Below are positions 23,625-38,710 of a stretch of 64,000 bases of DNA, in pieces. Origin of the DNA: an uncultured delta proteobacterium (GTDB lineage: Bacteria > Desulfobacterota > Binatia > Binatales > Binataceae). How positions within the stretch are numbered: the stretch's first letter is position 1; each line of letters opens with the position of its first letter. Both the position numbers and the translations under genes were made by a program. The notes beneath the pieces are model-generated. The model did not search any database. It was given only the letters and a program-made list of their open reading frames with translations, and was not told the DNA's origin. The stretch is taken from the NCBI GenBank assembly GCA_963724765.1, contig CAVRVY010000004.1:1216001-1280000 (forward strand), written 5' to 3'.

Positions 23625-23691
23625 GATATTCCTCAGTTATTTTTGCTGGTTCTTAGTGAACTTTTCGCCTTGAGTGTGAGATTGACATCTT

Positions 23692-24012
23692 TCAGAACCA
23701 GTGCGATTTCGATCGGAAGAGTCCACGTATGCTTCGTTTGCGCTGAGTGTAAATAGGCGCGCCGCGTTCTCGAACGAGCCGCACGGTAGTTTTGACATCC
23801 TGCGCATTTCTGGGAATCACAACTCCGATAGGTTCCTGGCGGTAATTGGAACCATCTGTCGCATATAGCGCACTTGTTCCTTTGTCGAACCGTATCTCGC
23901 CTTCTATTGATTTTCTAAGCGCATCGGCCAACGATTTAGCGGAATCTGTGGACATTGCGGTACGCGCATCGTCTCGATCGAGGTGCCGTAAGGCCATAAC
24001 TTTGCTGCTCAT
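23692..24012 (-). pseudogene. N-terminal fragment of an FAD-linked oxidase (GlcD-like)
   Basis: GEIRFD...LYATDGSNYRQEPIGVVIPR; similarity ends abruptly at RGAPI, before the expected RGxGTS motif. Confidence 0.8.
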
Positions 24013-24295
24013 TCAACGCTCTTTTCCTGATGTTACTTTCCCGCTTGCTAAATGGCGGCTGGCTAACCGAGCAGTTAGATTTGTGCTTTGAAAAAAAAGC
24101 ATCAGATGAATCTCAAGCACGAAACTTGCCATCTATGGCGGCTTTGTACAGAAGGGGTAGCCTGTCCCGCTTAGACCGGGCTCAACGGGGATTTGGAGAT
24201 ATTTACCCGAGCGAGAGAACGCAAAAACTCCGACCTATGCAGGATAGACGCAGTAAAGGGTCGAGGATATTCGGCAAAAGGAGATCGATTATCAG

Positions 24296-24601
24296 TTGAT
24301 GAGATGGCATGTCAGGCTGCAAACCAAAAACAGTCGATACGCAGCAGCAGCGGCGCGCCGGCAAGTCGATGTTCGATTGCTAGCCCCTATCCGCAGCAAC
24401 GAGCCATTGATCGGGCACGCTACGCGTTCTGACTACTCCGAACCGTTGCGCGCGGGGATCAAGATTTATGAATGGCTTGGAAAAATACTGCATGCCAAGA
24501 TGGAAAACTCTGAAGAGATAGAGCTGCGGCGATGGCAGAGACGTTCACTGATGGAGCGAATCGAAGAGTCAATAGCCGGATGCCTTGAACCGCTACTCTA
24601 G
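24296..24601 (+). pseudogene. Decayed, internally deleted cardiolipin synthase (PLD family) C-terminus
   Basis: VDVRLL..., LRAGIKIYEW, LHAK (truncated HKD) fused to SEEI...WQRRSLMERI..E...PLL C-terminus. Confidence 0.7.
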
Positions 24602-24774
24602 GCGCCGTGCCCCGTAATACAATTTGTATAGGTCTTGCCGCTTACCTGTCCACTTTTTGGTTCTGGCTAGCGCCGTCCTTGTCCACCCAGCCCGAGAGTT
24701 CATCGACATAGAATCGGCAACCGTCAAGCACCATTCGGACACTATAGGCCGGTGACATGAACATTGAGGGAAAC

Positions 24775-24834
24775 TGGTGCCGGGGGCGGGACTCGAACCC
24801 GCACGGAACTTTCGCTCCAGGGGATTTTAAGTCC
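24775..24834 (-). other. att site: displaced 3' half of tRNA-Leu with encoded CCA
   Basis: Minus strand ggacttaaaatcccctggagcgaaagttccgtgcgggttcgagtcccgcccccggcacca; 20-bp core ctccaggggattttaagtcc (24815-24834) identical to 38164-38183. Confidence 0.93.
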
Positions 24835-24935
24835 TATCAATATCGAGACTAGCTACTAACTATTGCAAAAGACTGCGCTAAAATACGGCTTTTCTGCCCG
24901 TCCATATGCTGCTGTTTGTAGCCCGTTGTCACCGT

Positions 24936-24957
24936 CACCCGCACAAAACCCGCACAA
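24936..24957 (+). repeat. Putative integrase arm-type site (CCCGCACA x2, 11-bp period)
   Basis: cacccgcacaaaacccgcacaa identical at 38019-38040; inverted pair tgtgcgggaattgtgcggg at 25139-25157. Confidence 0.7.
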
Positions 24958-24991
24958 ATTCAGATCTCGATCTGCCCAGCAAGGAAAACTG

Positions 24992-25019
24992 ACTCACCAA
25001 TCTCACCAAACTCACCATC
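24992..25019 (+). repeat. 3x 9-bp CTCACCAA-type iteron array (left end)
   Basis: actcaccaatctcaccaaactcaccatc; inverted copy (25/28 identical) at 37948-37975. Confidence 0.75.
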
Positions 25020-25277
25020 CAGACGCAGTGGGAAATTCGCTGTCTTCGGCACGAATCCTGCGTATGGCGCTGGACACGATGGAACTAGAATCCACTGCAC
25101 CGCGAAAAGGCTTTGACTTACAAAGGTTATTCGGCGGCTGTGCGGGAATTGTGCGGGCCGCGCGAGGGTGTTGGAATCAGACGCGAGCTTGCCGGCGCGG
25201 CGGCAACAGAAACGCCGCCCGGCTCGGAGGGCGAGCGCAGGCGGCGCGATGGCGGGCGCGGGTGATTGTGGTGACTC

Positions 25278-26351
25278 TTATTTCCGCCGTTCAGCGAGGG
25301 GAACCACTGTGCGCTTAGTCGGCCGCGAGTCGAGGTAACTATCGCGGCGCTTAACCGCGGCCGCGAGGTCGGCCTCGCTCACGATGTTGTAGCGGTCGAA
25401 GATCGATCGCGTCTTGTGGCCGCTCAGGCTCATCGCTACCCGCTCGAAAACGCCGGCGCGCACCATGTCGCGGATCGCGGTTCGTCTCAGGTCGTGCACC
25501 AATAGCTTTCCAAGCCCCGCCTTCGTGCACGCGGCCGCCCACGCTCCGCGAAAGTCGAGGATCGGCTTGCCGTTGTGATGGAACACGAGCGTGCAGTCGG
25601 GCCGGCGCGCGGCGTCGGCCCGGGCGACTATATCGGCCAGTTCACCCTCGAGCGGTAGCAGGCGGCTTTCGGCGTTCTTGGATTTTTCCGGCGCTAGGCG
25701 GACCGCGTTGCCAGCCCGGTCAACGTCGCGCCACTCAAGGGACTTCATCTCACCCACGCGCCAGCCCGACAAGTAGAGAAAGCTCACCGGGTCGCGCAGG
25801 CGCTCGGGCAGAGCATCGCGAAGGGCGACGAATTCCGCGTGATCAAGGAATCCCTGTCTGGCGTTATGCTCCTCGAGCATCTGAATGTGGGGCGCGCGCG
25901 ACAGCCGCTCCGCGTCCACGGCGATTTTGAAAGCGCGTTTGAGTGCGGCCAGCTCGCGGTTGACAGTGCCGTTGGCGGCGCCGGCCCCGCGGCGCCCGAC
26001 GACGTACGCCCCGATCCGATCGGTAGTGATATCCACGGCCCGATCTAGGCCGAAGTACGCACGCAAGTGGATGAGGCTGCTGGTAAGGCGGCGCATGCTG
26101 CGGCGGTCGTTGATCGTGTAGTCGGACACCAGCATTGCGGCGAGGTCTTCGAAGCTGACCTTCTCTTCGGCTTGTCCGAGGAACTTACCCCCGCGCTTGC
26201 CGCTCTCTCGGATGCGGACGTTGAGCAGCCGTCGCGCGACGGTTTCGGACTCGCTCCCGGATGATTCGCGAAACTCCTGGCCGCGGTGCCAATAGCGAAT
26301 CCACCAAATCGTGCCGCGTAGATAGAGACCGCCGGTTCCTCGCTTGCTCAT
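25278..26351 (-). CDS. Tyrosine recombinase/integrase
   Basis: SGWRVGE (R), KSKN (K), HDLRR, GHKT, DRYN catalytic residues; start MSKRGTGG at 26351 overlaps the upstream stop (ATGA). Confidence 0.96.
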   Translation of the reverse strand: MSKRGTGGLYLRGTIWWIRYWHRGQEFRESSGSESETVARRLLNVRIRESGKRGGKFLGQAEEKVSFEDLAAMLVSDYTINDRRSMRRLTSSLIHLRAYFGLDRAVDITTDRIGAYVVGRRGAGAANGTVNRELAALKRAFKIAVDAERLSRAPHIQMLEEHNARQGFLDHAEFVALRDALPERLRDPVSFLYLSGWRVGEMKSLEWRDVDRAGNAVRLAPEKSKNAESRLLPLEGELADIVARADAARRPDCTLVFHHNGKPILDFRGAWAAACTKAGLGKLLVHDLRRTAIRDMVRAGVFERVAMSLSGHKTRSIFDRYNIVSEADLAAAVKRRDSYLDSRPTKRTVVPLAERRK

Positions 26352-27097
26352 GGTTTCACCGTCCTCTTCGGGCTTTTGAGTTCCTTCTTTTTCGCGCGGG
26401 AGTCGCGCATCCACCGTGCGTGCGCGCATCGGGGCGTACAGAACCCCTGGCGCAAGTCCTCGCGGACGAAGACCGTACCGCAACCTCCGCATCGGCAGAG
26501 GAGTTCGTGCTCGGTCATTACTAAGTCCTGGGCGGCCAGCAGGAATGTGAGCTCGAAGGCTTTTGTGGCCCACGCGCCACGCTCGCGCCACATCGCGGTG
26601 GCTTTCTGCTTGCCCTTATCACGGCCGAGGAGGACCTCTTCGCGGCGAATCGCGCGCGTAAGGCGCGGCGGGAGGTCGACGATCCATTCCTGGCCGTTCA
26701 GGAAGCGGGCGACACCTGACTCTACTTGCTCCGATAGCCGCTTGAGGGCGCGAGCAGGCATTTCGGGCACGCCGTCGCCTGAATAAATGGTACCGGGCCC
26801 ATTCTGGTACAGCAGGAAAAGCCAAACCTCGCGGGCGACAGCTTGCGGCGTTTGGTCGTCGTCGAGGGCCGCGGCGCGCGCGTCCCGGTAATCCCGGCGG
26901 CGCGCGAAATCCTCGACGAGCCAGCGAAGCCGGCTCTCTGATGTGGCGCCGAGCTTACGAATAAGGGCGGGCTCGTACGCGACGCCGCTGTCTCTAGGCT
27001 CACCGGTGACGAACACCAGCTTTACAGGTGCATTGATCTCGGACTCGACGGGTCGATCGGTCCTGCGCTTTTTAGCTCTGTGACTGCGTGCTTTCAT
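26348..27097 (-). CDS. CGNR-type zinc-finger protein, probable element regulator
   Basis: C-terminal CRCGGCGTVF...FCTPRC...R.R; divergent from alpA and coupled to the integrase. Confidence 0.7.
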   Translation of the reverse strand: MKARSHRAKKRRTDRPVESEINAPVKLVFVTGEPRDSGVAYEPALIRKLGATSESRLRWLVEDFARRRDYRDARAAALDDDQTPQAVAREVWLFLLYQNGPGTIYSGDGVPEMPARALKRLSEQVESGVARFLNGQEWIVDLPPRLTRAIRREEVLLGRDKGKQKATAMWRERGAWATKAFELTFLLAAQDLVMTEHELLCRCGGCGTVFVREDLRQGFCTPRCAHARWMRDSRAKKKELKSPKRTVKP

Positions 27098-27123
27098 CTA
27101 AAGTCACACTACCACGGACGCCG

Positions 27124-27152
27124 TTTACAACGCAAGTCTGTGCGCTTACGCT
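27124..27152 (+). promoter_or_regulatory. Putative sigma70 promoter for a leaderless alpA transcript
   Basis: TTTACA (27124-27129)-17 bp-TACGCT (27147-27152), then 7 nt to GTG 27160; no SD. Confidence 0.45.
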
Positions 27153-27159
27153 CATAATT

Positions 27160-27354
27160 GTGAAACGCAAAGAAAGCCAACCACGCACAGGTCTGCTTTT
27201 CGTTGACGACGTTCTCGCGCGAGTAGGCAACCCGAGTAGGACGACGCTTTGGCGCTGGGTCCGCTCGGGCATCTTTCCGCCGCCGCGCCGGCTTGGCCCA
27301 CGCCGGCTGGCCTGGCGCGAAACCGATATCGACGAATGGCTGGCGTCGAGATGA
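27160..27354 (+). CDS. alpA: AlpA-family phage regulatory protein
   Basis: SRTTLWRWVRSGIFPPPRRLGPRRLAWRETDIDEW. Confidence 0.9.
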   Translation: MKRKESQPRTGLLFVDDVLARVGNPSRTTLWRWVRSGIFPPPRRLGPRRLAWRETDIDEWLASR

Positions 27355-27653
27355 TCGGCCTCGACGAACTGATAGCCGGTGCGAACCCGGCCTCGCGCGA
27401 CGAGGCCGTGAGCCTGATGGGCCTGCTCGCCGCCGCGCAGATTCGGCTTGCGAAGATCGTCGCGGACCTGGCGATGTCGCAGACCGAAGATCGGTTGCTC
27501 GATGTGGACGAGGCTGCTCAAAAGCTTGGCGTCCAACCTGGCTGGTTGTATCGCCGGACCCGAAACCTTCCTTTTCTGGTCCGACTCGACGGCCAAATTC
27601 GATTCAGTGCGGCCGGCATAGATCGGTACATCGCAGCGAGGCGGGGCCGATGA
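27351..27653 (+). CDS. Excisionase-like HTH protein
   Basis: LLDVDEAAQKLGVQPGWLY...LPF...IRF...IDRYI; ATGA overlaps on both sides. Confidence 0.85.
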   Translation: MIGLDELIAGANPASRDEAVSLMGLLAAAQIRLAKIVADLAMSQTEDRLLDVDEAAQKLGVQPGWLYRRTRNLPFLVRLDGQIRFSAAGIDRYIAARRGR

Positions 27654-29176
27654 TCAAACGGCCCGTGATCACGCTCGAGCCGGGGCGTCTACCGTGGAAC
27701 GTCGACGAAACTGAACGATACATCGTCGACAACTATGCCTGCTGGGGGCTCTACCAGCGTGGCGGGATGCTCGTGCGCGAGACTACCCTCTCAACTGAGA
27801 CCGATGAAAGGGAAATCCATCGCCCGGCCGGCGCCAGAATTCTCAGAATGGCGACGCCGGTTATGCTGCAGGACGTCTTCGGGCGCGCGATCCAGTTTGA
27901 GAACGCGAAGGGCAGTCCGATCGACTGCCCTACGAAAGTTGCTGCCACCTATCTTTCGCGCGCGGGACTTTGGCGCTTACCCACTCTGGTTGGAATCACA
28001 GACGCACCGGTCCTGCGCGCCGACGGTACTGTGCTTAGCGAGCCGGGCTACGATCGACAGACTGGATTGTTGCTGCAGTCGGCGACCGCATGGCGTCCGC
28101 TCCCATCGCTCTCGCGCGAGGCCGTTGATGCCGCGGTGCGGTGCCTGCTGGAGCCGTTCGCTGAGTTTCCCTTATCCGATGCCGGCCGGTCGGTAGTCAT
28201 CTCCGCAATCCTGACCGGGTTGCAACGCCGATTGCTGTTCTCGGCGCCCGCTCACGCTTTTGACAAGCCGACCCAGGGTAGCGGTGGGTCATTGTTGGCG
28301 GACTGCGTCGCGATCATCGTAACAGGCCGCTGGGCGACCACCATGTCGGCGAACGCCGACGAAGAAGAGCTTCGCAAAAAACTGGTTTCGGTCCTTATCG
28401 CGGGCGATCCGGTGGTGAGCCTGGATAACATCACTCGACCGCTTCGCAGCGACGCGCTCGCCTCGATTCTGACCCTAGCCGAGTACAAAGACCGCCCCCT
28501 CGGGGTGAGTCAAATAGTCGCAGTTCCCACGAGCGTCCTTTTTTTGCTCACCGGCAACAATTTGGTTTTTGCGGGAGATATGCCTTCTCGCGTTGTTGTC
28601 GCCCGCATCGAGCCGGACGTCGAGCGACCGGAGGAACGGACTTTTAAGATCGGCGATCTTCGCGCCCACCTGACGGAGCATCGTGCGAAATTGATCACGG
28701 CGGCGCTTACGATCCTTCAAGCCTACTTCATCGCCGGACGGCCCGCGCAAAACGTCAAACCGTTCGGTCGATTCGAGCAGTGGTCGAAGGAGATTCGCGA
28801 GGCGATCGTATGGGCCGGCCTACCCGATCCATGCGCAACCCGCGAAGCGGTGATCGCCGCCGATCCCGATCGTGACGCCGCCCTCGCGATTTTTGAGGCC
28901 TGGCACCGGCTTTTCGGCGATAACAAACTCACTATCGCTCGGCTAATCCAATCGACTGGCGCCGACGGCGAACTGAAAGATGCGCTCCTTAACGTCGCTG
29001 CAGACACCGATCATTCGCACGAAGTTAACGCTCGCCGGCTCGCTGCGTGGTGTCGCAATCGCGTTGGTCGCGTGGTCGGCGATTTCAAGCTTTCCCGCTG
29101 CGCCGGCGCGCACGGCGGGTTCATGATGTGGCAAGTGGTTCATAGGTCCGATGAAAAAATAGTCAGGGAGGTTTGA
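27650..29176 (+). CDS. Helicase/ATPase-like replication protein lacking a primase domain; Walker A degenerate
   Basis: PGYD..TGL, PTQGSGGSLL (Walker A position), VSLDNI (Walker B), DRPLG.S, TGNN, ERPEER.F, FEQWS; position after alpA/xis. Confidence 0.75.
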   Translation: MIKRPVITLEPGRLPWNVDETERYIVDNYACWGLYQRGGMLVRETTLSTETDEREIHRPAGARILRMATPVMLQDVFGRAIQFENAKGSPIDCPTKVAATYLSRAGLWRLPTLVGITDAPVLRADGTVLSEPGYDRQTGLLLQSATAWRPLPSLSREAVDAAVRCLLEPFAEFPLSDAGRSVVISAILTGLQRRLLFSAPAHAFDKPTQGSGGSLLADCVAIIVTGRWATTMSANADEEELRKKLVSVLIAGDPVVSLDNITRPLRSDALASILTLAEYKDRPLGVSQIVAVPTSVLFLLTGNNLVFAGDMPSRVVVARIEPDVERPEERTFKIGDLRAHLTEHRAKLITAALTILQAYFIAGRPAQNVKPFGRFEQWSKEIREAIVWAGLPDPCATREAVIAADPDRDAALAIFEAWHRLFGDNKLTIARLIQSTGADGELKDALLNVAADTDHSHEVNARRLAAWCRNRVGRVVGDFKLSRCAGAHGGFMMWQVVHRSDEKIVREV

Positions 29177-29181
29177 GAAAA

Positions 29182-29640
29182 ATGGATATGGCAGAACTGC
29201 AGATGATCGAGGCCGAGGAGGCTGTCGCTTTCTCGCTCAAGGGCAACGGCAAAATCGCGGTCAAAGGCAAGAACGCCGCGGTAGATCGCGCGCTCGAGCG
29301 CATCGCGGGCCATCGCGACGAGGTCGCGGTGCTCTTGCGCGAGCGAGGAACCGTTGAGGAGGAGGACGTGGTGCGCGAGATCGCGAGCACCGTCCCGAGC
29401 CTGGCGGTGCAACGCCAGAACTATATCGCATGGTTTTCGGCGCGGAGCACCTATTACCATCCAAGCGCGGCGCAACTCGACGCAATGTTTGCGGCCTGCA
29501 ATGAAGGCGACGAGATAATTTTTGATTTTGCGCTCAGCTTCACAGTGCGAAAGCCCGATGGCCGGCTGCTTCAGATAGATCGCCGTGGACGCGTGGTCCC
29601 GCCGTCGCCGTACAGCCCAGCCGTCGCAGATAAGAGGTGA
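29182..29640 (+). CDS. Hypothetical protein; N-terminus resembles TubC-N-like domains that follow satellite primases
   Basis: FSLKGNGKIAV...IAGHRDEVAVLL; RBS GGGAGG. Confidence 0.55.
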   Translation: MDMAELQMIEAEEAVAFSLKGNGKIAVKGKNAAVDRALERIAGHRDEVAVLLRERGTVEEEDVVREIASTVPSLAVQRQNYIAWFSARSTYYHPSAAQLDAMFAACNEGDEIIFDFALSFTVRKPDGRLLQIDRRGRVVPPSPYSPAVADKR

Positions 29641-29646
29641 CGAGCA

Positions 29647-30228
29647 ATGGCCGCTGCAAATAGTGCGGAAGCGCAGTCGCGCGAATGGGATGGCACAACC
29701 TGCATCACGTGCGGTAACCGGCTGGCGCGCGACACCGTGTGGTGCGAGGATCACGGGCCCTTCGCAGCCGAGCACCGAGCGGAAAAAGCCGAACGCGCTC
29801 GCCGACCGCAGGGCCTTGCACAGTGGATCGACAACCCAGCGGTTCGGAACAATCTCCGACGCGCAATCCTTCGCCTCGACGAAGCACGGGCTTTCGAACA
29901 TCGACCGCGCTTCACAGAAGAAGAGGCGCGCGCGATCCTGCTCGATCTCTGCCGCGGGCTGCTCACTCTGAGGGAGACGATCACGAGCGTGCCGCGGCAT
30001 TCGACAGAGCGGCGTAATCTCCTAGCTCTGCTCCATAAGATGATCGCGCAAGAGGCGGCGTGGTTCGCGAATGGCTATCCGTACAAGACCGCCCGCGGAG
30101 AAGAGCTCGACGAGATCATGCGCTTCGAGATCAGGCGACTGAACCGAGCCTCGGACGGGTTTAGAACAACCGCAATTTTTCCGCCCAGTCCCGTTTCGCG
30201 TGGTACGCCTGAATTGAGATCAACATGA
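29647..30228 (+). CDS. Hypothetical protein (CxxC...CxxH near N-terminus)
   Basis: 193 aa; RBS GAGGTG; operonic spacing. Confidence 0.6.
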   Translation: MAAANSAEAQSREWDGTTCITCGNRLARDTVWCEDHGPFAAEHRAEKAERARRPQGLAQWIDNPAVRNNLRRAILRLDEARAFEHRPRFTEEEARAILLDLCRGLLTLRETITSVPRHSTERRNLLALLHKMIAQEAAWFANGYPYKTARGEELDEIMRFEIRRLNRASDGFRTTAIFPPSPVSRGTPELRST

Positions 30229-30275
30229 AACTATCGATTACTCATGCTCGCGGAAATTTCTGAGGCAGGACGAAA

Positions 30276-30908
30276 ATGGACTTCGCAATTTTCGACGACA
30301 CTCTCGATTCCATCGTTTTAGATCCGCGCCAACGGGTTAAAGACCTGGTGCGCGACATCGTCTTGCGCCACACGAAGAACGCACCTGCAGAGTTCGTCGC
30401 CGAACTCGCCGCGCCGCGCCTGCGCGAACTCGGGCATCGGATCAAAGACTTACTCGAGCACGGACACTTGGGCGACATCGATCCGCTAATCCGCGCTTTC
30501 GACCTCGAGTTGACGAAGGAAACCGTTCACGAGCGCACCGCGGAGCACGGCCGCTTGCGACCCATCACCGCCGAATCAGAGATCAAAAAACACGCCGACC
30601 TGTGGGCGCGATATCGTTGGGTCGGGGCGAGTGGGTATGAACAGGCCGCGCTGCTCGTCCTGATCAAAAACGGCGACAGAATCGCAAATGTCGACTATTG
30701 GAAAATCACGATGGCGAGTGGCCAGGTGATCACGCGCGACCAGGTGCGTCAGGTCAACCGCCCTCGACTCACAACTGAGCGTGCGTGGTTGGCGAATTTC
30801 ATCAGCGATGAAACTGTGCGCGCAGCCGAACCGGCCGAACAGCGCGAGGCGGCGCAGCTCGCGCGTCCCTTTCGCGATTTCAGTGGCCCGCGCCCGGTGC
30901 GGGACTAA
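30276..30908 (+). CDS. Hypothetical protein
   Basis: 210-aa ORF, AGGA RBS, co-oriented in the element operon. Confidence 0.65.
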   Translation: MDFAIFDDTLDSIVLDPRQRVKDLVRDIVLRHTKNAPAEFVAELAAPRLRELGHRIKDLLEHGHLGDIDPLIRAFDLELTKETVHERTAEHGRLRPITAESEIKKHADLWARYRWVGASGYEQAALLVLIKNGDRIANVDYWKITMASGQVITRDQVRQVNRPRLTTERAWLANFISDETVRAAEPAEQREAAQLARPFRDFSGPRPVRD

Positions 30909-30974
30909 ACAATGGGGTGCAAGTGCGCGGACTGCGTATACGTCCTAATTTCAGGTCATAGGGAGCAAACCAAA

Positions 30975-31388
30975 ATGCAATTTGCAATTAACTACAGAAC
31001 GCTCGAAAAACTCGGTAACGAATTTGGCGTTTCGTCCTCGGAGTCCGCGGCCGCGATAGGCCGCAGACGCCGCGGCGACTTCATTGTGCACGCAGCCGAT
31101 GATCTTTGCGCGAATCGCGTGCCACCGCGGAATCAGCCGTATCAGGGCGATCCAGATTACGAAGCGGCAAAGCGCGGCCCGGTCGGCAATCCCGATTATG
31201 ATGCGCAAAAGCGTGGAGGCCGGGCGACAACTTTTTCGGATGACGACGCGGACATGAGCAGCGGCGACCATGTGGACGCTGCGCTCAACGCGATCGACTT
31301 CGAAGATCCCGACGCGCTCGAGCGCGCGGCGGAGCATTTGAAAAAGGCCGCGGCGAAGAAGCGCGGCGCGCAGCATCTGCGACGTTAA
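30975..31388 (+). CDS. Hypothetical protein with a duplicated GxPDYxAxKRG motif
   Basis: RBS GGGAG; GDPDYEAAKRG / GNPDYDAQKRG. Confidence 0.6.
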   Translation: MQFAINYRTLEKLGNEFGVSSSESAAAIGRRRRGDFIVHAADDLCANRVPPRNQPYQGDPDYEAAKRGPVGNPDYDAQKRGGRATTFSDDDADMSSGDHVDAALNAIDFEDPDALERAAEHLKKAAAKKRGAQHLRR

Positions 31389-31495
31389 GAAATTCCCGGC
31401 CCGGTGGACCTCCTCATCCGCGCGCACGGGGCGCGAGCGGTGTGTTCCTTCATTGCGACGCGCCGGCCGGGCCGGGATACCACATAGAGTATCTG

Positions 31496-31882
31496 ATGTC
31501 AGATAGCGTGCCAATAGCCACACCACATCCTACTCGCGCCACGCGCCGTCGGGACCAAAGAGTAAGGCGAAAGCGTACTGAGTTAGAAAAAGCGCATCCG
31601 CATCTATCGCTTCCGCGGAATCGATCGACTACTCGGCGCTGGGCAGAACTGGTTGTACTGGGAAATCAGATATATGAAAAGCTGACCCAGATCGGCGTGC
31701 TCGACGAGCATGGACAGCCCCGCGCACTGATCGATGTATTCCGCAGAATCGCTCTCGCGCAGGTCCACCTAGAACGGGAATTACTACTAACCGAGAAGAG
31801 CCGGCATGAGATGCCGGACGCGCGCAAGCCAACGCTGGATCTGGAGATACTTCGTGCCCAAGTTGTCGACGAACCGGATTAA
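31496..31882 (+). CDS. Probable terminase small subunit (P27-family-like)
   Basis: 128 aa, basic N-terminus, GVL..HG.P...LERELLLTEKSR resembling the ELGLTPxSR motif; overlaps the terL start region. Confidence 0.6.
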   Translation: MSDSVPIATPHPTRATRRRDQRVRRKRTELEKAHPHLSLPRNRSTTRRWAELVVLGNQIYEKLTQIGVLDEHGQPRALIDVFRRIALAQVHLERELLLTEKSRHEMPDARKPTLDLEILRAQVVDEPD

Positions 31883-33380
31883 AGATTATCAGTCGTTCGC
31901 CGAAATCGCGTTGGCGGCGAATCTAACCGACCACCAGCGGCTTATGCTCCAAGCGGTGGCGCGCTCGCGCAGAGTAGCCGTCGCCGCCTGCCACGCGACA
32001 GGAAAATCCTATGGGCTAGGATGCTTGGCGCTCGCGCACGTGTCTCTGTACGAGGACGCCCGAGTGATCTGTCTCACGCCCGGATGGTTGATGAATCGCG
32101 CTGTCATTTGGTCGGAGATCCACGCGCTACTGGAACACGCCCCGCAGCGGCTGCCAGTGGTCAGTCAGACTCAAACCGAGTTGCGACTCGGCGCCAAAAA
32201 CATGATTCTCGGGCTCTCCGCTGCTGATGCCGGCCGGCTTCAGGGACATCACTCCAAAAATTTGCTCGTCGTCGTCGACGAAACAGCCGCGCTTGCTCCT
32301 TACTTCTGGCCAGCCATCGAGGGCGTACTCGCATCAGGCGATTCGCGACTCATTATTAGCGGCAACCCGACCGTCACGAGCGGACCATTTTTTGACGCAT
32401 TCGGCCGCCATCGTGCGAGCTGGGAGACTATCCAAGTCGGGTACCAAGATACTGAGAACTTCGACGGCATCACGCTAGAGCGCTTGCTCGAGATGAGCGA
32501 TGCCGAGCTCGACAACAATCCCCGCCCATACCTGATCACACGCCGATGGGTGAAAGAACGTTACGCAGAGTGGTGGAACGGCAGTGTCGCGAACAGTCCA
32601 TTGTGGGCATCCCGCGTCTTGGGGCAATTCCCGTCCGAGGGCGGCAACAGCTTATTCCCACTGCGTGCGCTCGAGGCCGCGCGACGGAAGTCCGTCGACC
32701 CAGGCGGTCCTGTCACGATCGGGTGCGATCCGGCAGGCCCCGGGAAAGACCTGACGGCCTGCGTGGCCGTCGCCGGCGGAACAATCCTGGATATCGCAAC
32801 GTTTAGCGACGCGGATGCCCGCGGGCGGGTGATCGAATTCATAAAGCGCTGGAAAGATCGAGTCCGACTGGTCAACGTCGATAGTGGCGGCCTCGGCTTC
32901 TACTTCACTGAACACGTACGCAGTCAGGGCTTTAGGACTATCGGTCTCAACGCGGCGAGTGCCGCAAGCGATCGCGAGCGATATACGAACCTGAAGGCCG
33001 AGCGCTACTTCCATCTGCGCCAGGCGTTCATCAAGGGTGCCATCAGTGGCCTCGACGACGAGACGCTGGGCGAGCTGGCGTCGATGGCGTACGTGGTCGA
33101 TCCGCATGGCAGAATCGCAATCGAAGATAAGGCGTCGGTGAAGTCCGCGCTGGGCCATAGCCCTGATCGGGGCGAAGCTCTGATGCTGGCCGCCGGCGAG
33201 GACGAGCATCAACCCTGGACGTATACGCCGGTTGTCCCGAGCCGTGCCACCTGGGCGGGCGCGTATGACGCACCGCGCAAGTTGACGCGGCGGCAACAAA
33301 ATCAGATCGACGACGCGAAGCCGAAGGCCGGGCTCGGAATGCTGATCAAAAGCCGGCGATGGGGCAGAGGCGGCTGGTGA
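31863..33380 (+). CDS. terL: Phage terminase large subunit
   Basis: VAVAACHATGKS Walker A, LQGHH, LLVVVDETA Walker B, SGNP, RVLGQFP, IGCDPA and VNVDSGGLG RNase H-like acidic residues, NLKAE, GHSPDRGEALML; exact start uncertain. Confidence 0.92.
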   Translation: MSTNRIKDYQSFAEIALAANLTDHQRLMLQAVARSRRVAVAACHATGKSYGLGCLALAHVSLYEDARVICLTPGWLMNRAVIWSEIHALLEHAPQRLPVVSQTQTELRLGAKNMILGLSAADAGRLQGHHSKNLLVVVDETAALAPYFWPAIEGVLASGDSRLIISGNPTVTSGPFFDAFGRHRASWETIQVGYQDTENFDGITLERLLEMSDAELDNNPRPYLITRRWVKERYAEWWNGSVANSPLWASRVLGQFPSEGGNSLFPLRALEAARRKSVDPGGPVTIGCDPAGPGKDLTACVAVAGGTILDIATFSDADARGRVIEFIKRWKDRVRLVNVDSGGLGFYFTEHVRSQGFRTIGLNAASAASDRERYTNLKAERYFHLRQAFIKGAISGLDDETLGELASMAYVVDPHGRIAIEDKASVKSALGHSPDRGEALMLAAGEDEHQPWTYTPVVPSRATWAGAYDAPRKLTRRQQNQIDDAKPKAGLGMLIKSRRWGRGGW

Positions 33381-33751
33381 TGACTCCGCTTGAGGTATCC
33401 GCCACTGTCGCGCGTCTCGGAGGCCCCAGCGCGGTCGGTCGTCTGGTCGGGCGCAAACCGCAAACCGTCTGTCGATGGCAGAGACGAGGGCTCGACCCGC
33501 GCCGACCTGGTAATCGCCGGTCGATCGACCGACTGCGCGAGCTCCTCGATAACGCGCCGGAGCCGGTTACCAAGAAGCCGAAGCGGAAAACCTGCGCGAC
33601 CTGCGGCCAACCCGATGAGCAGCTCGTCTGCGAGAAATGCCGGGCGGCTTCGATCGTCTTCGACCGCGAGCGCGGCGTCGGAACGGTGCCTCTCAATTTG
33701 CGGCGCGCCTACAACCTGAACGACAAGGGGCGACCCCAGAGGGCCGCGTGA
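33380..33751 (+). CDS. Cro-like HTH plus Zn-ribbon protein
   Basis: LGGPSAVGRLVGRKPQTVCRW, CATC...CEKC; start overlaps the terL stop. Confidence 0.65.
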   Translation: MTPLEVSATVARLGGPSAVGRLVGRKPQTVCRWQRRGLDPRRPGNRRSIDRLRELLDNAPEPVTKKPKRKTCATCGQPDEQLVCEKCRAASIVFDRERGVGTVPLNLRRAYNLNDKGRPQRAA

Positions 33752-33924
33752 AGACGCAAGCCGGCGATAAGCCTACCCCGCTGACTAGTAGCTGGCGAGA
33801 CTGGTTCTTCATCGGGAAACGCCATGCTCCACGGTCGCCACGCAGGAAGCTGGACCATTGGCGTCCCTATCGACCCGGCGCACGCTCGTCGCGCTTTAGT
33901 CACCAACTCGGACTGGACCGATGA
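33748..33924 (+). CDS. Small basic hypothetical protein (58 aa)
   Basis: GTGA overlap with the upstream stop and ATGA overlap downstream. Confidence 0.5.
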   Translation: MKTQAGDKPTPLTSSWRDWFFIGKRHAPRSPRRKLDHWRPYRPGARSSRFSHQLGLDR

Positions 33925-34067
33925 TGCGCGGTTGCTACAGACGGCCGCGGCGCCGGCCGGGCCCGAGGCGCGCGATCCCTGAGAGCCGCGACCTCGAGGC
34001 CAAGCGAGAGGCGCTGCGATTGGGCCGCGAGCTGCTGCGCGGAACAAAGTACGAGGAAGAGGCGTGA
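33921..34067 (+). CDS. Small Arg-rich hypothetical protein (48 aa)
   Basis: Manual translation MMRGCYRRPRRRPGPRRAIPESRDLEAKREALRLGRELLRGTKYEEEA; 4-nt overlaps at both ends. Confidence 0.5.
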   Translation: MMRGCYRRPRRRPGPRRAIPESRDLEAKREALRLGRELLRGTKYEEEA

Positions 34068-34150
34068 GATCGGCATTGCTCCGCGCCGTGGCTGACGCCC
34101 TGTGGATTTCGTTGGCGGTCGTTGCTTGCGAGGACCTGGCGCGCGGCTAA
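34064..34150 (+). CDS. Hydrophobic micropeptide (28 aa)
   Basis: MRSALLRAVADALWISLAVVACEDLARG; purine-rich GAGGAAGAGG upstream; GTGA and TAATG overlaps. Confidence 0.45.
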   Translation: MRSALLRAVADALWISLAVVACEDLARG

Positions 34151-34371
34151 TGATGATTTCCGAGGGAAGTCGAGTGACAAATCGCAAGCAGCTTGAGCGC
34201 CTGGGGCATCAGGTCGTGATGCACGGCGCGGATCGCACGCTCTATCAGTGCCAAAGGTGTCGCTGGCTTTTCAGGATTGGGCGACCCAGCGGGCTCGCGT
34301 TGCCAGAGGGCCATGACGTTTCTCCTGCCGAAATAGAAAGACGGAGTTCAGCCGCGTGTCCCGGTGCATAA
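34150..34371 (+). CDS. Small CxxC hypothetical protein
   Basis: TAATG overlap; YQCQRC. Confidence 0.5.
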   Translation: MMISEGSRVTNRKQLERLGHQVVMHGADRTLYQCQRCRWLFRIGRPSGLALPEGHDVSPAEIERRSSAACPGA

Positions 34372-34502
34372 GGCTCAAGTGGATGAAAGCGCAAAAAAAT
34401 GAAGCGTGGACCGAAGCTGCTCATGGTGAACGCCCGCTCGAGTTTCGGACGGCTGCCAATCCGCTACCCTGGCGCTCTCCGCGCCACGAGTTGAGCTGAA
34501 AG

Positions 34503-37500
34503 TTGGCCCTACCTAACGAACGGCTCCGCGAGATCGTTCACGAGCTTTCCGGTCGGCCTAAACATGAAAAGGTTCGGTCGCTAATCTACAGCCTTTTGGT
34601 TGATGGGCTCGGCGCCCAGAGCACGGAAATTCAATTCGAGCGCAAGTTGCCCGAAGTACACGGCCGCACGGACGCGCTGCTTGGAAGGACCGTACTCGAG
34701 TTTAAGAGCGACCTTCAAAATGAAGCCGGCGACGCTGAAGAGGAACTCTCCCGCTATCTCAGCCAGCGTGAATCCGAGACGGGACATCGCTTCGTTGGCG
34801 TTGCGATCGATGGCGCTGATTTTTTCGCCTACGAGCTGAGGCGCGGAAAGCTCACCCGCCTTCGCACGCATTTCAGCTTGCGCGGCGAGTTGCGCAAAAA
34901 GGGCAGTAACGCGATCGAGATCGGGCATGCGTTGCTCGCTTGGCTAAGCGGGTTTCTAACTTTACGCCCTGAGCTTACGCCTGACCCCGAAGTGATTCGC
35001 CAGGAGCTCGGCCGCGAAAGCGTTGCCTACGAGATCGCCAGTTCAAGGCTTGAGGTGCTCTGGTCGGCGGTCAAGGACCTGTCGGATGTTCGTCTAAAGC
35101 GTCAGTTGTGGTCAGAGCGCCTCGCCCTCGTCTACGGTACCAGCATCGACGATGACGCTCTCTTCTTTCAGCACAGCTACTTGACGATCGTCGCGAAAAC
35201 GATGGCCACGCTGATTCTCGGAGCTGAGCTTCCCACACCCGCCGATTTGCTCTCCGGCAAGGTATTTCAGGATGCCGGCATCGATGGAGTAGTCGAATCC
35301 GACTTCTTCGATTGGGTGCTCGCGGCGTCGGGCGGTGACGACCTCATCCATCGTATAAGCACGCAGGTAGCGCGCTTTCGTCTTGGCGACATTAAGCACG
35401 ATGTTCTCAAGGTTCTCTATGAATCACTGATCGATCCCGAACAGCGGAAGTATTTGGGCGAATACTACACCCCTGACTGGCTCGCGCAGAAAGTATGCGA
35501 TCGCTTATTGGACCGACCCCTTGAGCAGCGCGCCCTCGATCCTTCCTGCGGTTCCGGCACGTTCCTGTTCCATGCGGTGCGCCGGTTTCTCAAGGCAGCC
35601 GATGCTGCCAATATCGGCAATCGCGAGGCGCTCCAGCGTTGCACCGAGCGTGTCTTCGGGATCGACGTACATCCGGTAGCCGTAATCAATGCGCGCATCA
35701 CCTACCTGCTCGCCATGGGCGAGACGCGTCTGCGCGACCACCCAAATCTTAGTATCCCCGTTTACCTCGGCGACTCACTCCAGTGGAATACCGAGGAAGT
35801 CCTGACGGGGCAGACAGTGCGGGTCCGCGTGCCTCCTCAAGGGACCGAAGAAGAAAAGGACCCCGCGAAAGTCCCGAACCTGACATTTCCGATTCGGCTT
35901 GCCACTAACCCCGCTCTCTTTGACGCAGTGCTTAACCAAATGCTGCGGCTGAGCGAAGAGAAAGCTCCGGCGAGCGTCTTAGAGAATTGGACGGAGCAAT
36001 TTCCGAAGGAGGAAATCCCGCCGGAGATGCGCAGCACGCTGATCTCCACGTACAAGAATCTGCGCCGGCTGCGTACCGAGAAACGCAATCATATCTGGGG
36101 CTATGTGGCGCGCAACCTAAGCCGCCCAGTGTGGCTAGCGACGGCCGGGCAGAAGGTGGATGTAATCATCGGTAACCCGCCTTGGCTTGCCTATCGTGAT
36201 ATGTCGTCGGAGATGCAAAAGCGTCTTCGCGCGGAGTGCACCGAGCGCGACCTGTGGGCCGGCGGTAAGGTTGCGACGCACCAAGACATCTCAGCGTACT
36301 TCTTTGCCCGGTGTGTTGAACTCTATCTAAAAAAGAATGGCGTAATCGCCATGGTTCTGCCCTACGCAACGATGACGCGCCAGCAATATCGTGGCTTCCG
36401 CAACGGTATTTTCGCGAGCAAGCCGACGCGCAAGAAAGGGGTACGAATTTACGCCTCAGTGCGCTTTAATGAGGCGTGGACCTTTGACGAGTCCGTGCAG
36501 CCGCTCTTTAACGTGCCCTCGTGCGTGCTCATAGCAACCGGGAAGCGAACCAGGAGCGTTGCCGGCAAGAGTTACCGCCTATTCCGGTCAGCTTCCGCAG
36601 CGCGATTCATCAAATGCAGAGGCTGAGGCACATCTGAGTTCGCAAGAAGTATCCTGGCCGAAAGGCAATGAGTCGAAGGCCAGCGGCTATAGCGGCAAGT
36701 TTAGGCAAGGCGCAACCGTTGTTCCGCGATTCCTATTCCTGGTAAAACGCGCGTCCGCTGGTCGCCTAGGTTTTAATCGCGATACGCCACTGGTCGAGAG
36801 CCGCCGAAGCAATCTCGAGAAGCGACCGTGGAGGGATTTGGAGCCGCTTCGCGGGCCAGTCGAAAAACAGTTTCTGCGGCCACTCTATCTGGGCGAGTCG
36901 ATCGCACCATTCCGTCTACTAGAGCCGCTCGAGTCCGTGATTCCCTGGGATAGAACAAAAGCCCGACTGCTGGATTCCCAATCCGCACAACGCGCCGGTT
37001 ATCGCCACCTTGCCAACTGGTTAAAGCAATCTGAGTTGCTCTGGGCAAACGAAGGCAAAGGACGGATGTCCTTGCTTGCGAGGATCGACAAGTTTCATGG
37101 GCTTTCGGCACAGATGCAGTGTAATTCCACGCGCGTTCTTTACTCGGCTTCGGGTACCATTCCGGCTGCCGCCCTATTGAAAGACTCGGACGCTGTGATC
37201 GAGCACAAGCTCTACTGGTCAGAGATTTCAGGCGAGACTGAAACGAACTATCTCATAGCCACGCTCAACAGTGATGCGATTCGCGGTTACGTTGCTTCCC
37301 GCCAATCGCGAGGGCAATGGGGGCCGCGAGATTTCGACAAGCTTCTAGCCGAGGCAATTGCTGAGTTCAACCCGTCCAATCCGCTGCACCTGGAACTCGC
37401 ACACGAGGGTGCGCGCGCCGAGAAAGTCGCGGCGCGAGTTGAACTCTCGGACGGTATCCATTTCATTCGGGCGCGCGGTATTATCCGCAAGGCGTTGAGA

Positions 37501-37605
37501 GAAGAAGGCGTCGGAGACCGAATCGAAAAACTTGTTCGCCGGCTATTACAGACCGGGTCACCCGCTTCCAAGGTGGGGGGAACTGGAATCGGCCCGGCAA
37601 AGTGA
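34503..37605 (+). CDS. Type IIG-like fused restriction endonuclease / N6-adenine methyltransferase (frameshift near 36540)
   Basis: RTD...EFK nuclease, GEYYTPDWLA, DPSCGSGTFL, IGNPPW; the TRD-like C-terminus (36559-37605) joins in frame if one G of GGG 36540-36542 is removed. Confidence 0.85.
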
Positions 37606-37947
37606 ACTGTAGAATCTCAGGCGCAAGATCCGGGCTCGGCTCCATCGTGAATCAGCGGCCGAATCGTGATCGAGCTCATCGACTCGCCGACGGCGCTGTT
37701 GGGCCCAAGGGCCCCCTTCAATGGCCGGTAAAATTTCCTTGATCTCCTGTCGCTACGCCGCGCGGTGCACTGTCTGTTTAAGGCGGGTGCGCGCAACAGC
37801 AATCGCTCGATTTATGGATAACCAAGGCAGGCCACTACGGCAACGAGAGCTGTGCGACCGTCACGCACGTGAGTTGAAGGCGCTCCATCGCGAGGTCCGG
37901 GGTACTTCGATCAAACCATCCGAGCCTCTCCCCACAGCCGGGTCCGC

Positions 37948-37975
37948 GATGGTGAGTTTGGTGGGTTTGGTGACT
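37948..37975 (-). repeat. Inverted 3x 9-bp iteron array (right end)
   Basis: gatggtgagtttggtgggtttggtgact; reverse complement matches 24992-25019 at 25/28. Confidence 0.75.
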
Positions 37976-38018
37976 TTGTTTCCGGCCCTAGCCGTTTTCG
38001 TTTTCGGCCGAGAACGCC

Positions 38019-38040
38019 CACCCGCACAAAACCCGCACAA
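38019..38040 (+). repeat. Putative integrase arm-type site
   Basis: 22-bp exact direct repeat of 24936-24957. Confidence 0.7.
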
Positions 38041-38126
38041 TTTGCCAGATTTGGCGGGGCTCCACCTCTCGCGCGCTGATGTCCTAACCTACCAATAAGC
38101 CTTTGATTACACTAAAGAATATTGAA

Positions 38127-38211
38127 TGCCGGGAGCGGGATTCGAACCCGCACGGAGGTTGCCCTCCAGGGGATTTTAAGTCCCCTGCGTCTGCCATTTC
38201 GCCACCCCGGC
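38127..38211 (-). tRNA. tRNA-Leu(TAA), reconstituted at the att site; CCA not encoded
   Basis: gccggggtggcgaaatggcagacgcaggggacttaaaatcccctggagggcaacctccgtgcgggttcgaatcccgctcccggca; cloverleaf with long variable arm, anticodon TAA at 38176-38178. Confidence 0.96.
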
Positions 38212-38710
38212 GCTTTATGAACGCGCTATCCAGGCATCCCTAGACCCAGTCCGAAGCCGACACCGCCAAAAATGACCGCGAACATCGCCGTGTACACGGT
38301 CATCGGTAGGTTGCCGCGAGCAGATACCGAATCGAGAACACAGCGGCGAACAGTCCGAAGCTGCAAAACGGCAGGGCGAACAGATGGAGACCCCCGGTTG
38401 CGAGTTGCGGCTTGGCGCTGGCCGTACGCATCACATCTGGCGCTGTCTGCTCCATTAAAATATCGCCCATATGCTCGGAGCCGCGGCGGAATCGCGATCG
38501 GGGCGCCGATGGGCGATTTTGCATGGCGCGTGAAGGGCGGCGCAAGCCTACGTGGAGAAGCCCCCGGCGTCTGCCACCGTCTTCCCATGCACTTGCCAAT
38601 GTTGACTAAGAGCACAACTTTGCCTAGGGGCGTTATGACGCAGCATGGCGTGCATTTGGGTGAGAATAGTTTAAAATGGAGTCTGGAAAAGGATAGTCCA
38701 GTTTTTGAAA

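Follow-up and report, generated by a model that had tools for sequence, protein, structure and literature searches.

A window of 64,000 nucleotides from an uncultured delta proteobacterium of the Binataceae (assembly GCA_963724765.1, contig CAVRVY010000004.1, positions 1,216,001 to 1,280,000, forward strand) holds a 13.3-kb island in a tRNA-Leu gene. Besides an integrase and a replication gene, the island encodes a large terminase subunit (TerL) and, probably, a small one (TerS). On balance, the island is best read as a phage satellite of the integrative kind, resident in a Binataceae-like bacterium of soil or peat; it would supply its own terminase, and it has no capsid, portal or tail genes. 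An earlier note, made from the sequence alone, had proposed such a satellite, and the proposal is supported: the closest elements, the open reading frames (ORFs) without known relatives (ORFans) and the selection acting on TerL all failed to overturn it. Docking of the terminase on a helper procapsid is the step that we infer.

Known satellites borrow the helper terminase (P4 and cos-type phage-inducible chromosomal islands, PICIs), replace the specificity subunit only (pac-type PICIs), or bring a whole head with its terminase (capsid-forming PICIs, cfPICIs). An element with a motor and no head would fill the missing middle of this series. It would also escape detectors that use terL to tell a cfPICI from a PICI (PMC10085698), and it raises a testable question about the specificity of TerL-portal docking in nature. 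The finding points to a phage-satellite system in Binatota.

A large terminase under purifying selection

The TerL product matches phrog_2 at 5.1e-24 over residues 36-479, and no Pfam or NCBIfam model matches it at threshold. By tblastn it finds 206 phage records, 49 of which cover at least 80% of the query, and it is 27-30% identical to annotated phage TerLs over 86-90% of its length. The match in Clostridium phage CDKM9 is an annotated TerL in the gene order terS-terL-portal-head morphogenesis. A protein collection contributes 79 homologues. Residues K51, D142-E143, D292, D343 and D438 are invariant in 29 aligned homologues and in 14 closer ones; read from the alignment, they would be the Walker A lysine, the Walker B Asp-Glu pair and the aspartates of an RNase-H-like nuclease. 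The clear terL with intact ATPase and nuclease motifs that the earlier note described is borne out by the phrog_2 match and these residues.

The window element itself (WIN) and the related loci L001-L005 and L009 are here called window-type. Selection was gauged on six window-type terL genes, that of L007 included, which give 15 pairs. NG86 dN/dS is 0.10 for the closest pair, WIN and L007 (75% amino-acid identity), and 0.13-0.25 for eight other estimable pairs; dS is saturated in 6 of the 15 pairs and exceeds 1.7 in all, so that the ratios are rough. Relaxed selection on terL, which the earlier note had suggested checking, is not what these values indicate: they are those of purifying selection, and the motif residues are invariant. 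TerL is a genuine, selectively maintained large terminase.

The terL stop codon (TGA, 33378-33380) ends in the A that opens an ATG at 33380, confirming that it overlaps the next start.

A probable small terminase

The ORF directly upstream of terL, and overlapping it, holds this position in all seven window-type elements, and its product is probably TerS. It belongs to a family of ~130-aa proteins with 468 representative clusters at E<=0.001. The nearest Atlas clusters are viral, and one of them is 56% Terminase_4 (score 0.93, 175 shared features), a lead that comes from a language model. Prediction of a TerL-TerS complex scores 0.53, against 0.00 for the best control, and lends weak support to the pairing: of the 80 solved complexes 58 attain the co-folding mark, as do 2 of the 110 mismatches, and scores of 0.60 or lower comprise just 7 of the 80 solved complexes together with both passing mismatches. 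Between runs, at least 93% of contacts are the same, and the predicted local distance difference test (pLDDT) of the partner is at least 72. The family consensus ends in LGL(S/T)P, which we take to be an ending of P27-type small terminases.

Profile searches of the PDB with 7 and with 150 sequences return spurious helical or TPR matches alone. Alignment by hhalign to the TerS-like family of the type-B cassettes described below, to the CDKM9 TerS and to the gene upstream of terL in vir525 gives probabilities of at most 1.3%, and tblastn of the candidate and three family members against 50,697 phage records gives no match. The label of probable terS in the earlier note holds as far as position, co-occurrence and the Atlas and co-folding leads go; it gains nothing from family matches.

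A conserved layout that ends at terL

A TerL pattern built from the 14 closer sequences detects five loci among genomes sampled at one per species, six in metagenomes and one distant phage in IMG/VR. The named hosts are all Binataceae or metagenome-assembled genomes (MAGs) labelled uncultured (delta)proteobacterium. Among the seven window-type loci, TerL identity is 51-68%. WIN and L002-L005 each carry the integrase, regulators, replication gene, TerS-like gene and TerL on one contig (tblastn, all-versus-all ORF clustering), adjoining tRNA-Leu in WIN, tRNA-Ser in L002 and L005, tRNA-Leu(caa) in L003 and tRNA-Val in L004. These are the related int-alpA-rep-terS-terL elements without portal or major capsid protein (MCP) genes for which the earlier note had proposed a search. 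L001 and L009 have terS-terL on contigs that end just upstream of terS. L002 repeats the 3' end of its tRNA-Ser exactly, over 13 nt, immediately downstream of terL, which would limit this element to ~7.8 kb; searches for att repeats in L003, L004 and L005 found none. The conserved module ends at terL in each case, and the genes after it are unrelated between elements. A deep lineage of elements, 8-14 kb long and inserted at various tRNA genes, keeps the int...terS-terL layout.

Capsid, portal, protease and scaffold families of Pfam match 0 of the 119 ORFs of at least 60 aa in the seven elements. The 19 Pfam families that do occur comprise integrase domains, HTH_17/AlpA, DUF3987, Prim-Pol, PriCT_1, methylases, one tape-measure domain and a few host-like domains. 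A PHROG scan of the same ORFs shows no capsid, portal, protease or scaffold among the first 25 of 68 families. The single structural-type match in the seven elements is a tape-measure-like gene in two pieces (L003:5872-7801; phrog_28, 1.9e-39), which lies between o155-like and o210-like genes of L003, the closest syntenic relative of the window element (TerL 68% identical). Tape-measure genes are reported in satellites (mycobacterial satellites; EPIP preprint; PMC12822802), a background that bears on L003. The earlier note had allowed that the closest homologous elements might carry portal or capsid genes next to terL, and none of the seven does. The capsid-less state is not a one-off deletion.

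TerL phylogeny and portal-bearing relatives

A quick IQ-TREE phylogeny covers 26 intact TerLs, with the IMG/VR phage as root, and leaves out the fragmented L003-L005 as well as L061, in which no TerL was called. All four intact window-type TerLs fall together in a single clade (SH-aLRT 99), separated from each other by paths of 1.1-1.5 changes per site; twelve type-B TerLs make up another clade (SH-aLRT 100). A third, mixed clade contains the TerLs of L049, L051 and L052, which are ~41% identical to that of WIN and have a portal and an S78 protease beside terL; in L051, terL is followed by a PF04860 portal (2.2e-21) and the protease. Among 128 ORFs downstream of terL at 22 non-window-type loci, the portal family has three members and S78 two (among the first 25 of 96 families). 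L049, L051 and L052 are in Binataceae, and phages with the same terminase family therefore exist in the same bacterial family. The capsid-less lineages are old and separate.

These relatives bear on the idea that the element is a decaying prophage, or a cfPICI whose head and tail genes have been deleted, with TerL as a leftover. Kin at ~41% identity adjoin a portal and a protease, terL is frame-broken in L003-L005, the restriction-modification (RM) gene of the window lies in two frames, and L003 has its tape-measure-like gene. Decay is nevertheless quite unlikely: the capsid-less layout is common to seven loci at different tRNAs with TerLs in a deep clade, terL dN/dS is low, int, att, alpA and rep are intact, and the conserved module always stops at terL with unrelated genes after it.

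ORFans between rep and terL

The four ORFans that the earlier note listed (155, 193, 210 and 158 aa) have no family in Pfam, PHROG, NCBIfam or PADLOC scans. All ORFs between rep and terL encode 146-210 aa; portals and HK97-fold coat proteins are considerably longer. Among relatives, only o155 and o210 are conserved. The predicted fold of o155, which has 26 homologues, reaches a pLDDT of 85.6 and finds 0 PDB matches by Foldseek at E<=0.001 and none in BFVD. VIA-align reports a 54-62-residue N-terminal likeness to beta-hairpin docking and KH-like domains with Z of 5.4-5.9, below the caution line of the tool. For o210, with three database homologues and copies in L003 and L005, the model (pLDDT 74.6) consists of long helices and a small beta domain and has no PDB or BFVD match at E<=0.001. 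An Atlas search with o193 has a best score of 0.76 and gives no lead.

The ORFans might be head proteins that have diverged beyond recognition, in which case the element would build its own capsids as a cfPICI does. The four sit where PICIs keep capsid-morphogenesis genes, o210 is mostly long helices, as scaffold proteins are, and the fold models cover two of the four, o155 and o210. Their sizes, the lack of family matches, the absence of any capsid, portal or other fold among matches to the o155 and o210 models, and the conservation of just these two among relatives make this reading very unlikely. The possibility raised in the earlier note that an ORFan is a capsid or portal protein is accordingly disfavoured, less firmly for o193 and o158 than for the two with models.

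Element boundaries and att sites

The tRNA-Leu(taa) gene called by ARAGORN is the sole tRNA in the window, and the Rfam tRNA model scores 57.3 bits on it. Its 3' part recurs as a 57-nt imperfect direct repeat (24778-24834 versus 38127-38183, 51 of 57 identical), and the start-to-start spacing of the copies gives an element of 13,349 bp. All six mismatches fall within the first 37 positions; the final 20 nt, which cover the anticodon loop, are identical. Such a pattern marks integration into a tRNA gene by an integrase, with the crossover in the region of the anticodon loop, and agrees with the att repeats and the ~13.3 kb given in the earlier note. A 25-nt direct repeat (24 of 25 identical) has one copy inside each element end; the two would flank the core in an excised circle and are candidate integrase arm sites. 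Coordinates of all features are collected in Table 1.

Table 1. Features of the element, in window coordinates
Feature	Coordinates	Strand	Basis
attL, displaced 3' part of tRNA-Leu, 57 nt; final 20 nt as in attR	24778..24834	-	Repeat search, 89%
25-nt repeat, copy 1, ~100 nt inside attL; candidate integrase arm site	24936..24960	+	Repeat search, 96%
Tyrosine integrase; true start likely internal, at MSKRG	25278..26591	-	PF00589, 2.8e-16
Protein of 249 aa, divergent from alpA, with a zinc ribbon at its C terminus	26348..27097	-	ORF and family scans
AlpA-type helix-turn-helix (HTH) regulator/excisionase	27088..27354	+	PF05930, 3.8e-9
HTH_17 (excisionase-like) protein	27249..27653	+	PF12728, 1.5e-6
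Replication protein (Rep), matched part of ORF 27293-29176	27647..29176	+	PHROG matches
o155, conserved ORFan, N-terminal alpha-beta-beta-alpha domain	29173..29640	+	Model, homologue search
o193, ORFan, N-terminal Cys-rich stretch	29647..30228	+	Family scans, Atlas
o210, conserved ORFan (copies in L003, L005), long helices and small beta domain	30276..30908	+	Model
o158, ORFan, low complexity	30912..31388	+	Family scans
Probable TerS, 146-aa ORF, likely start 31496	31442..31882	+	Position, co-occurrence, leads
TerL; called product 508 aa from 31854	31806..33380	+	PHROG, tblastn, alignment
o130, HTH and zinc-ribbon DNA-binding protein; start overlaps TerL stop	33359..33751	+	Family scans
o89, small ORF, no family	34102..34371	+	Family scans
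Type IIG RM gene, two overlapping frames (34503-36626, 36559-37605); defence cargo	34503..37605	+	PADLOC, Eco57I/N6_Mtase
o125, small Cys-rich protein	37721..38098	+	ORF list, genome search
25-nt repeat, copy 2, ~85 nt inside attR	38019..38043	+	Repeat search
tRNA-Leu(UAA); its 3' 57 nt (38127-38183) are attR	38127..38211	-	ARAGORN, repeat search, Rfam

Gene content outside the terminase

The matches to PF00589, PF05930, HTH_17 and Rep families confirm an integrase divergent from alpA-xis-rep, and the integrase with an AlpA-type regulator at one end is an arrangement expected of a PICI. The HTH_17 protein has a 53% identical copy in L003. A CGNR regulator named in the earlier note is a wrong label: the 249-aa protein has no zf-CGNR match at E<=0.1 and just sub-threshold zinc-ribbon or NinG-like matches. 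Its family is common to L004 and the type-B cassettes L053, L056 and L057.

Residues 120-617 of Rep match phrog_29234 (7.7e-93). The protein can also be aligned with phrog_19930, 'DNA polymerase/primase' (3.3e-35), over the C-terminal half of that family, and with the C-terminal halves of primase-helicase PHROGs. No Pfam domain, and hence no primase domain, is detected in Rep, and there is no PDB match, in keeping with the absence of a primase stated in the earlier note (Pfam, PHROG). The primase-replicase module of PICIs may be represented by this protein, which resembles the C-terminal half alone; related elements have replication genes with Prim-Pol, PriCT_1 or DUF3987 (Pfam).

After terL, o130 is not conserved in relatives. 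The RM cargo announced by the earlier note is present as one Type IIG gene in two frames. The PADLOC model PDLC03630 (length 1100) matches each frame, the first at positions 291-692 (9.2e-69) and the second at 975-1059 (1.4e-7); the pieces, of 707 and 348 aa, overlap by 68 nt, and their split stems from a frameshift or from an indel in the assembly.

The N-terminal 54 residues of o125 (37721-37880), rich in Cys, recur at 55-71% identity at four further loci of the host genome, G000 (C1:599361, C3:831908, C3:304563 and C4:306476), and one copy adjoins an HTH_17/xis-like gene. The motif looks like a shared module of several islands.

Type-B cassettes and the host genome

G000, which has 5.4 Mb in 4 contigs and is 97% complete, holds three full TerL-family genes and one remnant. 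Two of these TerLs belong to cassettes of another kind, here called type B (C4:1664002-1667169, L046; C3:141416-144741, L047), in which a divergent zinc-ribbon protein is followed by an N6/N4 methylase with a ParB domain, a small protein of DUF5681 or similar type, and TerL. Further type-B cassettes are L050, L053, L055-L060, L062 and L064-L068. They sit among host genes in at least 12 genomes and often lack an integrase. Across the 9 kb upstream, surveyed at 17 type-B loci, the only recurrent families are the methylase and DUF5681, the other genes being host genes such as AcrB, esterases and major facilitator superfamily transporters. Downstream are insertion sequence elements; four loci also have a large serine recombinase there. 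A 409-aa type-B neighbour has no match in the PDB. In a class-wide sample, 30 of 401 genomes, a tally that takes in G000 and the unpublished genome G213 (used for this count alone), have a TerL-family match at E<=1e-10.

A tentative broader proposal, which we regard as plausible rather than probable, is that capsid-less satellites that bring a terminase, small islands at tRNA genes with a complete TerS-TerL holoenzyme, form a widespread, unrecognised class that pirates only helper procapsids and tails. Binataceae would then harbour two independent lineages, one with int/AlpA/Rep and one with ParB-methylase/TerS/TerL. If such a class is real, terminase-portal docking must be promiscuous enough to be exploited across phage lineages.

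The type-B cassettes also suit a different use of the terminase pair, in which it is kept for a role other than packaging and the island moves by other means. The pair might interfere with phages, as a decoy or competing terminase that blocks or cuts their concatemers, or serve other DNA processing. G000 has three TerL genes without a cognate portal, tiny type-B cassettes lie among host genes and often lack an integrase, the element bears Type IIG defence cargo, and satellites are known to manipulate the packaging motors of their helpers (PLE paper, PMC11417361). In window-type elements, int, AlpA and Rep are kept next to terS-terL, which fits self-mobilisation, and the ATPase and nuclease motifs of TerL are both conserved. 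We consider a non-packaging role unlikely on these grounds; interference and self-packaging are compatible with each other.

Alternatively, the structural genes of the particle that the terminase serves might sit in another part of the genome, in the manner of a split gene transfer agent. One phage-type sheath gene (G000:C2:244815-245384, L069; PF04984, 2.3e-16) is the sole tailed-phage structural family among five searched and may belong to a contractile injection system or be a myovirus remnant. The genome gives no match to PF05065, PF04860, PF05133 or PF10145, so that, at 97% completeness, it shows no HK97 capsid, no HK97-type or SPP1-type portal and no tape-measure family. By tblastn it also contains no homologue of the portal, protease or 511-aa protein of the kin phages, nor of the head-region genes of L006. 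With no kin of the head genes of related phages in the genome, and with the element itself mobile at tRNA sites, a split system is scarcely probable.

Two other loci of G000 might be related islands. At C4:55198-57043 (L048), a 42-residue remnant of a TerL C-terminus, 60-75% identical and with one internal TAG, lies beside an integrase-like stretch and is probably a decayed copy of a window-type element. At C3:301554-304722 (L072), a weak Terminase_4 match (E 0.009) between an integrase-like match and a copy of the o125 N-terminal motif may mark a further small island with TerS.

Comparison with known satellites and phages

The PICI core comprises int, a regulator, pri-rep, an optional capsid-morphogenesis gene and terS, and terL, adaptor and connector genes distinguish the cfPICI (SatelliteFinder, PMC10085698). 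As a ~10-kb tRNA island with int, an AlpA-type regulator, a replication gene, unknown genes and terS, followed by accessory or defence cargo, the element resembles a PICI (PMC10085698). It is also PICI-like in its lack of structural and lysis genes, and across its 13.3 kb the scans with Pfam, PHROG and NCBIfam match none of the head, tail or lysis families of an intact temperate phage. Unlike PICIs, which have terS without other packaging or structural genes, it encodes a full TerL; in addition, its Rep lacks a detectable primase domain, and its TerS lies outside the profiled families. It shares with cfPICIs the encoding of both terminase subunits, TerL being present and TerS probable, and so would control its own packaging as they do (10.1101/2022.09.08.507074). 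However, cfPICIs add MCP, protease, portal, head-tail adaptor, connector and HNH genes (PMC10085698, PMC10690885), none of which is found here or in the six related elements. By Pfam, cfPICI capsid, portal, prohead protease, and adaptor or connector families match 0 of the 119 ORFs, and no such fold appears in the o155 and o210 models. General Pfam and PHROG scans of the element ORFs likewise reveal no Sid, Psu, Delta or alpha primase of P4-like satellites, for which no dedicated profiles were run.

A review of packaging strategies describes Streptomyces satellites in which the terminase comes together with portal and capsid genes (PMC10690885). VEIMEs (integrative mobile elements encapsidated in virions) and tycheposons resemble the element in being small, integrative and mostly free of capsid genes, with TerS homologues in some (10.1101/2022.07.26.501625, 10.1101/2020.12.28.424599). 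VEIMEs are packaged as concatemers in full-size heads (10.1101/2022.07.26.501625), and PICI-like tycheposons are reported to carry MCP or terS (10.1101/2020.12.28.424599). They differ in that the available text on VEIMEs describes TerS homologues and 'motor-like ATPases' and reports no TerS-TerL pair (10.1101/2022.07.26.501625), and in that VEIME and tycheposon hosts are marine. Tailed phages of the same TerL family (Clostridium phage CDKM9; L049, L051 and L052 in Binataceae) have a homologous TerL, at 27-42% identity, with a small gene upstream. In these phages the portal and head genes come straight after terL, whereas terL of the element is followed by unrelated small genes and cargo.

No int-rep-terS-terL element without head genes was found in the literature, where supplements of satellite surveys may list TerL-bearing members. 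Judged by title or the start of the abstract, no paper on prophages or satellites of Binatia was found either.

A possible life cycle

Packaging of the element by its own terminase into a helper procapsid is, by our assessment, modestly favoured. When a helper tailed phage infects or is induced, AlpA/Xis and Int would excise the element, and Rep would amplify the excised form. TerS would mark the DNA of the element, and TerL would dock on the helper portal and fill helper procapsids with it. The packaged form would probably be concatemers, with several units per head, unless an ORFan changes the size of the head. The Type IIG RM gene would act as defence cargo that pays the host.

Several observations weigh against this scheme and the satellite reading behind it. 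Contigs of four metagenomes (X1-X4), at a depth of ~2-6, show no credible circle or empty-site junction, and the check for an attP junction that the earlier note had recommended yields no credible attP or attB in them. In 16 same-genus genomes the flanks of the element are non-syntenic, left and right lying on different contigs, and no empty site was found. Window-type elements were not found in IMG/VR, where one pattern scan gave just a 29%-identical phage. The TerS candidate has no Pfam (E<=0.1), PHROG, NCBIfam or PDB match, and PF05119 (Terminase_4, P27), searched over its own genome at E<=10, misses 31442-31882. Fold models cover two of the small ORFs, o155 and o210. Finally, terL is split into 2-3 frames in three of the seven window-type loci (L003, L004 and L005). 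Indel errors are the likely cause, since rep and int are split in these MAGs too, and decay is the less likely alternative.

Occurrence and mobility

Metagenomes of peat, soil and sediment contain near-identical sequence that covers part of the element (18 rows from 13 studies, with no RNA dataset among them). The structure of the element and the different tRNA sites of its relatives suggest that it is mobile. One joint in X3, from 24803 to 38169, was considered as an attP and rejected: it has a 29-nt side and 10 foreign letters, and it most likely derives from the tRNA of another organism.

Flanking regions

The 1.3 kb to the left of attL (23500-24777) has a lower G+C content, ~51% versus ~60%, and contains two small overlapping ORFs (24030-24299 and 24296-24601) with no match in the PDB. 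Sequence like that of 24346-24601 is present at 74-84% identity in several same-genus genomes, and G000 has one further copy (C3:332836). To the right of the tRNA, within a 980-aa ORF (38705-41647), positions 39250-40300 show a summed metagenome-contig depth of up to several hundred and many contig joints that skip ~90-170 nt or ~1 kb, which suggests an internally repetitive, widely shared domain.

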